Below, piece after piece: positions 42,501 through 46,995 of a stretch of 64,000 nt of DNA. The translations under genes were made by a program, and so were the position numbers. Numbering within the stretch: the stretch's first letter is position 1; every line of letters starts with the position of its first letter. Source of the DNA: Dictyostelium discoideum (taxonomy: Eukaryota); the NCBI GenBank assembly GCA_000004695.1, contig CM000155.2, positions 2,880,001 through 2,944,000 on the forward strand. The letters are read 5' to 3'. The notes under the pieces are model-generated. The model did not search any database. It was not told the DNA's origin and worked only from the letters and a program-made list of their open reading frames with translations.

Positions 42501-42717
42501 GTAAATAATTTAAATTCTATATATATAAAAAAAAAAAAAAAAAAAAAAAAAAAAAAAAAAAAAAAAAAAAAAAAAATTTTAAGATTTAAAATATAATTAT
42601 CTAAAAAAAAAGAAGGAAAAAATCATTTCGATATTTTATTTGTTTTTTTACCTTTTTATAAAAAAAAAAAAATTGGAAAAAAAAAGAAAAAAAAAAAAAG
42701 AAAAAAAAAAGAAAAAA

Positions 42718-43559
42718 TTAATTGACACAATCATTTAAATCTTGATTATTTCGGTTTGCGCTATTGTATGCTTGATAAAAACGTTCTTGGTCTTCATCAG
42801 AGTCTTCGTCGTTGTCATGGTTATAAACATGATTTTTGTTTTTACTATTTTTGATAACATTATCAACATTATAATTTACATTTGTATTTGTATTTGATAT
42901 TGTTGTTGTTGTTGTTGTATTGGTGGCGGAGGCAGTGGTGGTGGTTGTTGTGTGGTTACTACCATTAATAAAATAATTCGTTTGAGCTGGTGAAACTCTT
43001 GCGTTTGGAGGTCTTTTTCTTGGAGGTTGAGTTGGTTGTTGTTGTTGCTGGTGCTGTTGTTGCTGTTGTAGTTGTTGTTGTTGTTGTTGTAGTTGTTGTT
43101 GCATGATTTGATACTTATAGCTATATAATGATTTATATTTTTTGGTTTGTTTATACCAAAAGAAATATTCAATAACATCTTGACATGATTTACCTTTAAT
43201 TAAAGTTGAAATCTTTTTGAAATCTTTTTTATAAATTTTAAAACCTTCATCAAATAAATCTTTTTGAAGTTGTGACCAAGTTTGATTGATATGATCTTCT
43301 AAACATGGTTGGATGGTATCGAGTGAAGAGAAATCAATAGATTCCAAAGCATCTGCAACAGAGTAATCGTATTCATCTAAAATCGCCAAAATTGAAGAGT
43401 CTGGTATTTTGGAAACATTTTTATTTGTTTGGACACCCATCGATCTCAATGAATCATCAATACTTTTCAATTTCTTTCTTGCCGCACTAATAAAATGATC
43501 AACTTCTTCACTTTTTAATTTATATGGTGTATAAATTAATGTAGGTGGTAAATGATCCT
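42718..43559 (-). CDS. ELM2-SANT domain protein (MIER/CoREST-like), last exon, encoding the SANT domain and a poly-Gln-rich C-terminus
   Basis: The acceptor on the minus strand is ctaaaattttag (43561-43560). The exon reads (E)DHLPPTLIYTPYKLKSEEVDHFISAARKK...WSQLQKDLFDEGFKIYKKDFKKISTLIKGKSCQDVIEYFFWYKQTKKYK (the SANT/Myb-like domain), then Q-rich tracts and ...NQDLNDCVN, followed by TAA. Confidence 0.55.
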
Positions 43560-43652
43560 CTAAAATTTTAGAAAAAAAAAAAAAAAAAAAAAAAATAATT
43601 AAATTAATAATATATTTATAAAATATAAAATAAAATAAAATAAAATACTTAC

Positions 43653-46361
43653 CAAAATACACATTATATGGTCTACATTCTGGAATTTTAGCTTTTTGTG
43701 ATTCAATATAGGCAATTTTTGATAACCGGGCTTCTTCTTCATCATCCGTAGATGATTCATCAGATGATTCAGATGACTCGTCAGATTCATTATTATCATT
43801 GTTAATATTATTTTTATTATTATTATTATCACCATTATCATTATTATTATTATTGTTGCCATTACCATTTATGTTGTTATAATTTCTATATTTTGGTATA
43901 TGAATATCTTCCAACTCTTCTTCCTCTTCTTGTTTTATTTTTTGTTCTGGTACCTTTTCTTTTTGATCTTCCTCATCCTCATCCTCCTCTTCTTGTTCTT
44001 CTTCTTGTTCTTCTTCTTCCTCCTCTTGTGGATTATCTTGGATCTCTTTATCCTTTAGATTCTCTTTTTCTTTTTCGCTTATTTCTTCATTATTTGAAGA
44101 GATATCAATTATATTTACATTATTTTTAACATTGGGCTTTACTTTTTGTCTTTCTCTTTCAATTTCAGATTCATTAATCTCTTCAATATAACATGATGGC
44201 CACTGTTGTTGTTGATTTAAATTTTGTTGTTGTTGTTGTTGTTGTTGTTGTTGTTGTTGTTGTTGTTGTTGTTGTTGTTGTTGTTGTTGTTGTTGTTGTT
44301 GTTGTTGTTCTCCAAGTTTTAAATTATATTCAGTTGAATTTGTATTATCATCATTTATGAGAACCACCCCATCATTTAAACCACCTAAACTAGTAGATAG
44401 TGGAGAAGTAGGAGTTTTTCTTGATAATCTGTAATCTTGAAGATTTGATATCTTTGAATCCAAATCAAAGAAACCATTAATATCATCTAAATGTGATGAG
44501 CTTAGATCGACGTATGGATCGTAAAAAAACATAAAATCACCACCTCCATTTCCATTTCCTCTCTTTCTCTTACCTGTATTTACACTATTAGTAGTGGTAG
44601 TAGTACTTGTATTCTCATTATCATTATTATTTATATTATTATTATCATTATTATTATTATTATTATTATTATTATTAGTACTATTATTATGATTTATGTT
44701 ATTACTATTATCATCATCGTCATCGTTATCAATTATTAAAATATTGTTGTTGTGATTGTTTGATAATGAAGTTGTTGATTTATTTTCTAATTCTAAATCT
44801 TCAATATCAAGATCAATATCATCCAATGGAAATGGTGATAAACTCTCCTTTCTACTTTCAATTGGTTTTTGATACTTTAAAGTATCTTCTTTATCATCTT
44901 CTGGTTCTTCATCACCATCATCATTATTAATTGTATTTTCATCTTGATTCTCTGAAGAATCTAAATAAAAGATTTCCAATTCTTCAGTTGATTGATTTTC
45001 CTCGTTTTCTTTGATGTTACTAGTAGAGTAGTCTTCATTGATTGTTGGTAAAGAAGATGATTTCTCTGATAAAATATTTTTGATTGTTGTTGGTGATGAT
45101 AAAACCAAATCATTATCTGATAATGCAGAGTAATATGAATCAGATTCCTCCCCTGATTCACTCTCTTCAGATGTTTTGATTTTTCTATTATTATTATTAT
45201 TATGATCATTATGATCATGATTATTGATAACATTGTTATTAATATTTTCATTAATAAGATTGAAGAAAATATCATTTGTAGAGGGTAATGATGATGTTGT
45301 TGATGAAGGTGATCCATTACTTTTAATTGAATTGGTTGGTAAACTATCACTAGTATCACTTGATAGAGTGAGTTTAATATTATTATTATTATTATTATGG
45401 TTTGTAATTGGTGGTGAATCATTTACTTCATCACCTGTATTATTATCATTATTATTATTTTTATTATTATTATTATTATTATTATTATTATTATTATTAT
45501 TATTATTATTATTATTATTATTATTATTATTATTATTATTATTATTATTATTATTATTATTATTACTATTATTATTATTATTATTATTGCTGCTATCAAT
45601 TTTATATTCACTCTCATTTTTATTTATTTTATTATTAATATTGTAATCTTCATGATTAGGTTTTTTTCTTTTTCTTTTTCTATTTGTTTGATCATCAAAA
45701 GATGATGAGTGTGAATTATAAATTTCTGAAGAGGGTGGTGATGTCTTTTTGGTTTCTTTTTTTCCTTTTTCTTTGGCTAAGCTTCCAGAATTATGACGAG
45801 AAGTAATAGGAGGAGAAGTCTCTATATTTTTAGATTTGTTTTTTTTATTTTTATTATTTTTATTATTTTTGTTATTTTTGTTATTATTATTATTATTATT
45901 ATTATTATTATTATTATTATTATTATTATTATTATTATTATTATTATTATTATTATTATGTACTATTGGTTTTTTTAATTTTACTTGTTGATCACTTTCA
46001 TCATTATCGTTATTATCATCATCTTCATTATCATCTTCATCATCATCTTCATCATCTTCATCAATATTACTCTCTTTTTTATTGATAACGGAATTGGCTA
46101 TTTCTTTTGCAGTTGTTGATCTTGTTTTTGTGGTTGTTGGTGATACTTTTTTAGTGATAGCGGTTGTAGTTGTTTTTAAAGAGGAAGAGGTTGTGGTTGG
46201 TGATGTGGTAGTAGTTGGTGATGTGGAAGTGGTTGGTAATGTTGATGTTGTTGTTGTTGCTGTTGTTGTAAATGGTGGTGATAGTTTATCTTTATTATAT
46301 TTTTTAATTCGATCTGGAACAACTTTAAATCGTTTTGTTGGGGACAATGTTGTTCTTTTAT
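43653..46361 (-). CDS. ELM2-SANT domain protein, large upstream exon. It is acidic and poly-Asn/poly-Gln/poly-Thr-rich. The 5' exon or exons are not located.
   Basis: The frame is open over ~2.7 kb with no in-frame ATG at its 5' end. A minus-strand acceptor aattaatag lies at ~46363-46362. The exon ends ...EARLSKIAYIESQKAKIPECRPYNVYF, the ELM2-like start, at donor g|GTAAGT (+ strand acttac, 43647-43652). The missing 5' exon is presumably in or beyond the gap at 46669-46768. Confidence 0.45.
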
Positions 46362-46668
46362 CTATTAATTTCAAAATAATAAAAAACAATAAATAAAAAA
46401 AATTAAAAATTAAAAAATAATAATAATAATAAAAAATAAAAAAAAAATAAAAAAAAGAATTAGTCAATTGTTTAGAATTATTTTTTTATTTTAAATATTT
46501 TTTATTTTTTTATTTTATTTTTTTTTTATTTTTTATTTTTAATTAAACATTATTTTTTTTTTTTTTTAAAAAAATAATAAAAAAAAAAAAAAAAAATAAT
46601 AATAAAAATAATAATAATAATAATAATAATAATAATAATAATAATAAAAATAATTATAATAATAATAA

Positions 46669-46768
46669 NNNNNNNNNNNNNNNNNNNNNNNNNNNNNNNN
46701 NNNNNNNNNNNNNNNNNNNNNNNNNNNNNNNNNNNNNNNNNNNNNNNNNNNNNNNNNNNNNNNNNNNN
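46669..46768. other. Assembly gap of 100 N. It is flanked by (AAT)n on the left and by a (AT)n microsatellite of about 160 bp on the right (~46790-46950).
   Basis: A run of 100 n characters. Perfect (AT)n follows at 46790-46950. Confidence 0.99.
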
Positions 46769-46995
46769 AAATATACATATATATATATATATATACATAT
46801 ATATATATATATATATATATATATATATATATATATATATATATATATATATATATATATATATATATATATATATATATATATATATATATATATATAT
46901 ATATATATATATATATATATATATATATATATATATATATATATATATATGTATATTTATTTTTACTAATTTTATTTATTATTTTATTTTTTTAG

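Follow-up and report, generated by a model that had tools for sequence, protein, structure and literature searches.

Pairs of genes in which one complete gene lies in an intron of another, usually in the antisense orientation, are documented in animals. A second, artificial way of bringing two genes together is the chimeric contig, as in the Sanger-era assemblies of AT-rich genomes; homopolymers and microsatellite-bounded gaps are the classic sites of assembler mis-joins and contig breaks. We analysed a stretch of 64,000 nucleotides of the Dictyostelium discoideum AX4 reference (the window), in which an antisense multi-exon coding sequence of the ELM2-SANT type is found between two truly co-spliced exons of a UTP4-like gene, as in a host-nested pair. 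The locus differs from such pairs in that the inner gene is incomplete, with neither exon 1 nor promoter, in that the arrangement was seen in no other assembly or species compared, and in that the intron measures 4495 nt against a D. discoideum mean of 146 nt (PMC3188802, Table). It resembles the chimeric contigs in having its breakpoints at a 50-nt homopolymer and a microsatellite-bounded gap, in having flanks that are contiguous in independent assemblies, and in containing a piece with a conserved native locus. However, the join lies here not at a scaffold gap but in sequence that looks finished, and therefore does not advertise itself, and it falls in an intron whose splice sites are intact, where it mimics a nested gene. 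On the grounds set out below, the apparent nested antisense gene and its 4.5-kb host intron are very probably not biology but an assembly error in the AX4 reference, made up of a chimeric contig and a gap. The features concerned are listed in Table 1.

Table 1. Features of the UTP4-like gene and of the interval between its third and fourth exons, in window positions. L002–L006 are UTP4 loci and L009–L011 ELM2-SANT loci in other assemblies.
Feature	Position	Strand	Remarks
UTP4-like exon 1	40900–41274	+	ATG at 40900; donor AAA/GTAATT; equals the N-terminus of AX4 XP_629130.2
UTP4-like exon 2	41371–41798	+	Colinear with L002 by tblastn
UTP4-like exon 3	41921–42500	+	Ends ...LLQFESK; donor GTAAAT at 42501, kept in L002–L006
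UTP4 intron 3, true 5′ part	42501–42526	+	GTAAATAATTTAAATTCTATATATAT; identical to the 5′ end of the L003 intron (193 nt)
A50 homopolymer, left breakpoint of the chimeric join	42527–42576		A32 in UTP4 intron 3 of L003; A15, A29 and A23 at the native ELM2-SANT 3′ flank in L009, L010 and L011
Block, very probably misplaced: 5′-truncated ELM2-SANT gene and 3′ flank	42577–46668	−	Colinear with the NIF-adjoining locus in L009–L011; absent from the UTP4 locus in L002–L006
ELM2-SANT last exon, including stop	42718–43559	−	ELM2-SANT core, poly-Q and T/N-rich tail; PDB matches; dictyostelid orthologues at 40–42% identity
ELM2-SANT intron, 93 nt	43560–43652	−	GTAAGT...TTTTAG
ELM2-SANT long low-complexity exon (native exon 2)	43653–46361	−	Phase 1 start at acceptor aattaatag/AT
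ELM2-SANT intron 1, 3′ part	46362–46668	−	Runs up to the gap within its (AAT)n/(ATT)n tract
100-N assembly gap, right boundary of the block	46669–46768		
UTP4 intron 3, true 3′ part	46769–46995	+	AAA and (AT)n, with (AT)77 at 46797–46950, then GTATATTTATTTTTACTAATTTTATTTATTATTTTATTTTTTTAG; aligns to the A-run, (AT)n and 3′ end of the L003 intron
UTP4-like exon 4	46996–47823	+	275 codons and stop; no counterpart in the AX4 reference protein

UTP4 (CIRH1A) is a t-UTP/UTP-A subunit of the small-subunit processome, and its gene is an essential one for ribosome biogenesis. The first-pass annotation of the window had described an exon ending QFESK at a GTAAAT donor, followed 4.5 kb downstream, after the acceptor tttttttag, by an in-phase exon completing a protein of UTP4 length; both exons are present as described, and their sequences identify them as parts of one UTP4-like gene. 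The distal exon begins AATTCAGAAAAT... and runs in phase 0 to a stop codon at 47821–47823. Spliced together, the four exons of the window sequence encode 736 aa in an unbroken reading frame, with a single difference (F418S) from the protein KAM9944300.1 of assembly GCA_054883475.1. Orthologues of 723–784 aa occur in D. citrinum, D. dimigraforme and D. firmibasis, and single UTP4 products in this size range are called in six independent annotations. The best solved-structure match of the 736-aa protein is human UTP4 (7mq8_LN, E = 8.8e-26), which aligns continuously over query residues 75–550, an interval that includes residues 461/462, where exons 3 and 4 meet; the Chaetomium Utp4 structure was also matched, and the WD40 structures other than UTP4 come next, at about 1e-7. 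Pfam finds many WD40 β-propeller matches in the N-terminal half, in keeping with UTP4, whereas the C-terminal propeller is scarcely detected, the last 275 aa giving only E = 0.017. The protein differs further from UTP4/CIRH1A in its low sequence identity with the opisthokont proteins and in possessing some 75 extra N-terminal residues, K/T-rich and specific to Dictyostelium.

An intron at the corresponding UTP4 position, for which it had been suggested that other dictyostelids be searched, is indeed present in five other loci (L002–L006), D. purpureum included, with conserved position and phase and canonical GTAAA...TAG ends. This conservation argues that the splice sites in the window are real and not chance matches. 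The intron is, however, short in every case: 193 nt (L003), 90 nt (L004) and 88 nt (L005) in D. discoideum, 118 nt in D. firmibasis and 72 nt in D. purpureum, and the block at 42577–46668 is absent from all five. One of these assemblies, GCA_054883475.1 (L003), matches the window at 30888–42559 and at 46861–53373 with nothing in between, so that in its uninterrupted allele the two sides of the insert meet exactly. The two sequences are separated by seven substitutions and seven indels, six of the latter in homopolymer runs (approximately 99.8–99.9% identity); with seven substitutions in 18 kb, this near-identical strain is not known to be AX4.

The block was traced through distant orthologues of the ELM2-SANT gene to a conserved NIF-phosphatase neighbour, from there to the NIF proteins of the D. 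discoideum group, and thence to their loci. Window positions 42561–46668 proved colinear with 11427–15683 of L009 (84–87% identity), 11394–15363 of L010 and 11394–15485 of L011 (both 85–91%); the native location is thus read from related strains, 85–91% identical over the block, and not from the AX4 lineage. At all three loci a minus-strand gene encoding 1178–1222 aa lies tail-to-tail with a NIF/CTD-phosphatase gene. In L010 and L011, both from D. discoideum, one contig carries this locus together with UTP4, and the distance from the UTP4 donor downstream to it is 99.6 kb and 102.3 kb; the two genes are 27–32 locus tags apart in six assemblies, and the orientation of the block relative to UTP4 is the same in the window as at the native site, on the same chromosome. 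Adjacency of the ELM2-SANT and NIF-phosphatase genes is seen in D. discoideum (two assemblies), D. cf. discoideum, H. album, P. violaceum and A. subglobosum (consecutive tags 023500/023510). Two closer homes for the block, a nearby gap in the window (24130 or 53374) and a site within 10 kb of UTP4 in the other assemblies, were considered and rejected, as it was at neither.

Comparison of the two loci locates the left end of the block. In the native ELM2-SANT loci the sequence TTT(T)AA(A/G)GATTTAAAATATAATTATC directly follows a run of A15, A29 or A23; in the window it directly follows A50, which itself directly follows the start of the UTP4 intron and on the block side runs into TTTTAAGATTTAAAATA. 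The left junction is continuous sequence with no gap, whereas the right end of the block is an (AAT)n tract at the 100-N gap. The wrong join sits within the poly(A) run at 42527–42576 of a seemingly continuous contig, and what the gap marks is just the opposite end of the block. The earlier annotation had offered a wrong scaffold join at this gap as an alternative to a true nested gene; the gap is there, as is the neighbouring (AT)n of about 80 units (77 by our count), and a faulty assembly is indeed the favoured reading, but the mis-join is at the level of the sequence, in the A50 run, and not just at the gap.

The misassembly would have arisen as follows. The true UTP4 intron 3 would be short, roughly 200–300 nt, and would consist of an (AT)n microsatellite preceded by a poly(A) run. 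Into it would have been fused a 4.1-kb fragment, with exons 2–3 of the ELM2-SANT gene, belonging beside the NIF/CTD-small-phosphatase gene, which lies further down the same chromosome by approximately 100 kb. The fusion would pass through the poly(A) run present at both loci, and the other end of the fragment would lie in the (AAT)n tract of ELM2-SANT intron 1, where the assembler left the 100-N gap. Three marks of a chimera are found here: breakpoints in low-complexity sequence or a gap, flanks that are contiguous in an independent assembly (the 193-nt intron of L003), and another native locus for the block, with colinear flanks, in related strains. Presumably the Sanger assembly of AX4 contained a false overlap or a chimeric clone. 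No relevant publication reassessing that assembly with long reads was found in the literature searched.

One alternative accepts the window sequence as it stands and supposes a real insertion specific to AX4. UTP4 intron 3 would have received the ELM2-SANT fragment by duplication or transposition, with microhomology-mediated repair between the poly(A) runs as one conceivable route, and UTP4 would be left with an intron of at least 4.5 kb containing a promoterless antisense gene fragment. The continuous left junction would be in line with such an event, the shared orientation and chromosome would suit a local duplication, and the exact adjacency of the flanks in the uninterrupted allele fits a clean insertion too. 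We nevertheless consider it improbable, because the insert is absent from a strain with only seven substitutions in 18 kb, because its ends are a homopolymer and an unsequenced gap in a microsatellite, where mis-joins are classically found, and because the fragment has neither exon 1 nor promoter and shows no visible target-site duplication or mobile-element feature. The more particular proposal of a very recent variant of the AX4 lineage, in which recombination between two poly(A) tracts placed a copy of at least 4 kb of the ELM2-SANT locus in UTP4 intron 3, some 100 kb upstream, is a shade less probable again; if true, it would give one of the longest Dictyostelium introns, with UTP4 still spliced correctly across it.

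The remaining alternatives take the genes themselves differently. In one, the WD40 gene would end just past exon 3, as a protein of 462 aa, and 46996–47823 would belong to another transcript; the AX4 RefSeq/UniProt model does end ...QFESKI, and the D. purpureum annotation is split into models of 431 aa and 235 aa. This division is, however, very unlikely, since the human UTP4 alignment crosses the junction, the six independent annotations each give one product, and the GTAAA...TAG intron keeps its position and phase at all loci, including that of D. purpureum itself. In addition, the final I and stop of the AX4 model would come most simply from AG/ATT TAA at 42582–42589, within the misplaced block. 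Least credible of all is a genuine, evolutionarily maintained nested gene, with the ELM2-SANT gene resident in the UTP4 intron, as the first-pass annotation had allowed. The sole argument for it is the arrangement in the window; the flanking exons do appear, from the orthologues and the human UTP4 alignment, to be those of one gene. The inner gene, however, is not a complete transcription unit, its first exon being missing from the window copy, and the arrangement is not reproduced in independent assemblies or species: three D. discoideum assemblies, D. firmibasis and D. purpureum have introns of 72–193 nt without the insert, and in the dictyostelids listed above the ELM2-SANT gene adjoins the NIF phosphatase, in two D. 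discoideum assemblies some 100 kb from UTP4. The reading as a 4.5-kb intron with a nested antisense gene is thus not supported.

Misassembly of the intron has consequences for both genes. The AX4 protein XP_629130.2/Q54BS1 (462 aa) corresponds to exons 1–3 of the window plus one residue; on the gene model given here, the misplaced block has left the AX4 reference UTP4 protein truncated, lacking the C-terminal 275 residues of a predicted true product of 736 aa, and the last codon and stop of the 462-aa model probably derive from foreign sequence. The ELM2-SANT gene in the window is beheaded and lies some 100 kb away from where it belongs. The importance of these findings is for curation of the reference rather than for biology: this stretch would mislead insertion mapping, knock-out design, RNA-seq quantification and statistics of synteny and introns, and a scan that scored the window as a ‘nested gene’ or a ‘giant intron’ would return a false positive. 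In AT-rich genomes more generally, mis-joins may hide at homopolymers in apparently continuous sequence and not at N-gaps alone.

The minus-strand gene that had been reported between exons 3 and 4, at 42718–46361, is present, though incomplete. Its long exon has no in-frame ATG for about 700 codons, and between 46362 and the gap there is no start exon, the sole ATG there immediately meeting a stop. In L009, L010 and L011, by contrast, exon 1 (MQKKNDVVFREKRKKKK..., ATGCAAAAAAAGAATGATGTGG...; MQKKNDVVF...), of about 106 nt in L010 and L011, and the promoter are present; the window copy has no exon 1 because its right end, in the (AAT)n tract of intron 1, coincides with the gap. Used as a homologous-protein query, the ELM2-SANT core gave no matches, and an exhaustive search of representative proteins gave a best identity of at most 42%. 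Absence of the gene from group-4 species, or a lack of annotation there, was considered and dropped, as products are called at the native loci; the missing protein matches therefore reflect a gap in search coverage and not absence of the gene.

ELM2-SANT corepressor scaffolds (CoREST/RCOR, MTA, MIDEAS/MIER) recruit class I HDACs, and the assignment of the minus-strand gene to this family, made by the earlier annotation, holds at the level of sequence comparison. The solved structures best matched by its last exon are the ELM2-SANT regions of CoREST1 (E about 8e-7; ELM2-SANT1), MIDEAS and MTA1, and the PDB matches as a whole span the SANT domains of CoREST, MIDEAS, MTA and NCoR. The gene differs from the known corepressors in having some 900 upstream residues of N/Q/T/E-rich low complexity, in the absence of a second SANT domain, and in its Pfam profile: Myb_DNA-binding is matched below threshold (E = 0.008, 16.7 bits, against a cut-off of 24.4), with 24.3 bits for Myb/SANT in the orthologue P0017, and ELM2 is matched in neither the window product nor the orthologue. 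The CoREST1 alignment nevertheless begins some 57 residues before the SANT domain, and the H. album orthologue is named ‘ELM2 domain-containing protein’ in UniProt.

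Spliced together, the four exons of the plus-strand WD40 gene, which have canonical GTAA donors and TAG/AAG acceptors, give a UTP4-like protein of 736 aa that is one residue apart (F418S; T42370 in the window versus C) from KAM9944300.1 of the D. discoideum assembly GCA_054883475.1. Full-length orthologues of 723–784 aa are present in the annotations of D. cf. discoideum, D. citrinum (two assemblies), D. dimigraforme and D. firmibasis. The top solved-structure match to the model was human UTP4 (7mq8_LN; E=8.8e-26), in a single alignment over residues 75–550 that crosses the exon 3/4 junction at residues 461/462; Pfam placed WD40-propeller matches in the N-terminal half, the C-terminal part being weakly detectable. 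The model, the orthologues and the human alignment bear out the first-pass annotation in joining exon 3 and the exon at 46996 into one UTP4-length protein, and its coordinates were accurate, the donor at 42501, the acceptor at 46995, the ELM2-SANT exons and the N gap all being found again in the sequence.

Coordinates of the UTP4-like locus, of the contents of its apparent third intron and of the downstream retrotransposon
Feature	Position	Strand	Remarks
UTP4-like exon 1	40900-41274	+	
UTP4-like exon 2	41371-41798	+	
UTP4-like exon 3	41921-42500	+	ends ...LLQFESK; GTAAAT donor at 42501
A50 run	42527-42576		
ELM2-SANT last exon	42718-43559	-	
ELM2-SANT intron	43560-43652	-	93 nt
ELM2-SANT long exon	43653-46361	-	
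A/T-rich stretch	from 46362 up to gap		about 300 nt; ends in (AAT)n
100-N gap	46669-46768		
(AT)77 microsatellite	46797-46950		right of the 100-N gap
UTP4-like exon 4	46996-47823	+	phase 0; acceptor tttttttag ends at 46995; stop 47821-47823
Retrotransposon ORF2	53475-54812	-	Exo_endo_phos endonuclease domain; cut by gap
Retrotransposon ORF1	54812-55687	-	
tRNA-Ile(AAT)	56034-56106		adjoins retrotransposon

The third intron, 4495 nt long in the window (the mean for D. discoideum is 146 nt; PMC3188802), was compared with those of the UTP4 loci of three other D. discoideum assemblies, D. firmibasis and D. purpureum, and a 4.5-kb intron was found in none of the five. The intron after ...ESK measures 193 nt in GCA_054883475.1; it is shorter, at 90 and 88 nt, in the two D. 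discoideum assemblies that diverge more, and has 118 nt in D. firmibasis and 72 nt in D. purpureum. The GCA_054883475.1 locus matches window 30888–42559 and 46861–53373 without the intervening sequence, with 7 substitutions and 7 indels over 18 kb (6 of the indels in homopolymer runs), and the genuine intron parts of the window, 42501–42576 and 46769–46995, align to both ends of its intron, in which GTAAAT... is followed by A32, (AT)n and ...TTTAG.

A direct, word-indexed protein search with the ELM2-SANT gene gave zero matches, and an exhaustive profile-free search returned only distant dictyostelid orthologues of 40–42% identity (A. subglobosum SAMD00019534_023510, H. album PPL_03055 and P. 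violaceum CYY_007533). In the latter two species, a NIF/CTD-small-phosphatase gene lies 1.5–2 kb or less from the orthologue, and in A. subglobosum the locus tag of the NIF gene, 023500, is next to 023510. A search with the P. violaceum NIF protein led to NIF proteins of the D. discoideum group and from these to three loci (L009, L010 and L011, the latter two from D. discoideum assemblies), all of which have a minus-strand gene of 1178–1222 aa tail-to-tail with the NIF gene. Window 42561–46668 is colinear with L009 11427–15683 at 84–87% identity, and with L010 11394–15363 and L011 11394–15485 at 85–91%; the native locus was shown only in strains 85–91% identical to AX4 over the block. On the two D. 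discoideum contigs holding both loci, the UTP4 exon-3 donor and the block, which is downstream of it, are 99.6 kb and 102.3 kb apart, and the block has the orientation relative to UTP4 that it has in the window; 27–32 locus tags separate UTP4 from NIF in six assemblies. Both protein searches missed the 1178–1222-aa products (L009 11578–16109, L010 11556–15589, L011 11544–15738), possibly because of heavy low-complexity content or index coverage, and the lack of a match there does not mean that the gene is absent.

At the native loci, 15, 29 or 23 consecutive A residues stand directly before the motif TTT(T)AA(A/G)GATTTAAAATATAATTATC, and the sequence ahead of them is unrelated (…GATATCAATATAAATAAATATTT); in the window, the motif directly follows the A50 run, itself preceded by nucleotides 1–26 of UTP4 intron 3. 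Homology thus changes locus inside a poly(A) run common to both. The other end of the block is the N gap, within an (ATT)n/(AAT)n tract of ELM2-SANT intron 1. Native exon 1 (MQKKNDVVFREKRKKKKEHFPEEEE...NNK, about 106 nt, phase 1) suits in phase the window exon starting at 46361, and neither this exon nor the promoter is present in the window.

It is thus very probable that the AX4 reference carries a chimeric join in UTP4 intron 3. The giant intron with a nested antisense gene, as proposed in the first-pass annotation, is not real: an intron is indeed kept at this position in other dictyostelids, but at 72–193 nt in the five other loci rather than 4.5 kb, and the block is native elsewhere. A conserved nested gene is contradicted by the same comparison. 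A true insertion of the block, private to AX4, is very improbable; a fragment with one edge in a homopolymer and the other in a microsatellite and gap bears the mark of an assembler or clone artefact, not of a biological insertion. The reference annotation favours two separate genes, its AX4 protein (XP_629130.2/Q54BS1; 462 aa) comprising exons 1–3 plus one 'I', and here the homology evidence stands against it.

That AX4 protein model is truncated. Its extra 'I' and stop would come, most simply, from AG|ATT TAA at 42582–42589, within the 3'-flanking sequence of the misplaced ELM2-SANT block; if so, the mis-join also gave rise to the terminal micro-exon of the curated model. Usefully, the analysis corrects the UTP4 model to 736 aa and flags the ELM2-SANT gene as mislocated and truncated. 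The D. purpureum orthologue is also annotated as two models, of 431 and 235 aa (GL871265.1; 8001–10412 of the fetched locus), whose exons are separated by just a 72-nt canonical intron, which makes this an independent misannotation of the intron.

The repeats of intron 3 differ between assemblies: (AT)n has 77 units in the window versus about 47 in GCA_054883475.1 (11650–11740 of the fetched locus), the A-run 50 nt versus 32 nt, and the two divergent D. discoideum assemblies have (AAT)5–6 and no (AT)n. The repeat content of this intron changes very fast. Those two assemblies (GCA_054859385.1 and GCA_054859355.1, labelled D. discoideum) are about 85–95% identical to window 30000–53373, and GCA_054883475.1 about 99.9% identical to the AX4 window; the former divergence is large for one species and may reflect cryptic species or mislabelled isolates.

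The 'ELM2-SANT' label is a reasonable one. The last exon aligns with CoREST1 over the ELM2-SANT1 region of the latter (E about 8e-7), and also with MIDEAS and MTA1; in Pfam, Myb/SANT matched below threshold and the ELM2 domain was not matched. The gene can reasonably be regarded as encoding a putative corepressor scaffold of the CoREST type that contains very long stretches of low complexity, an identity that leaves the mis-join verdict unchanged.

A second 100-N gap lies at 53374–53473. The three other D. discoideum assemblies all cease to match the window exactly at 53373, and at least the next 4.4 kb of each was not found in window 53474–64000; either several kb are concealed in the gap, or it marks a further scaffolding problem. 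To its right is the 5' part of a minus-strand non-LTR retrotransposon (53474–56106 region), TRE5-like in look because it adjoins a tRNA-Ile(AAT) gene. Beyond it, a single-exon ORF of 1784 aa at 56457–61811 is a clear FANCI orthologue, with Pfam matches to FANCI_S1, S2, HD2 and S4 (E down to 6e-54).
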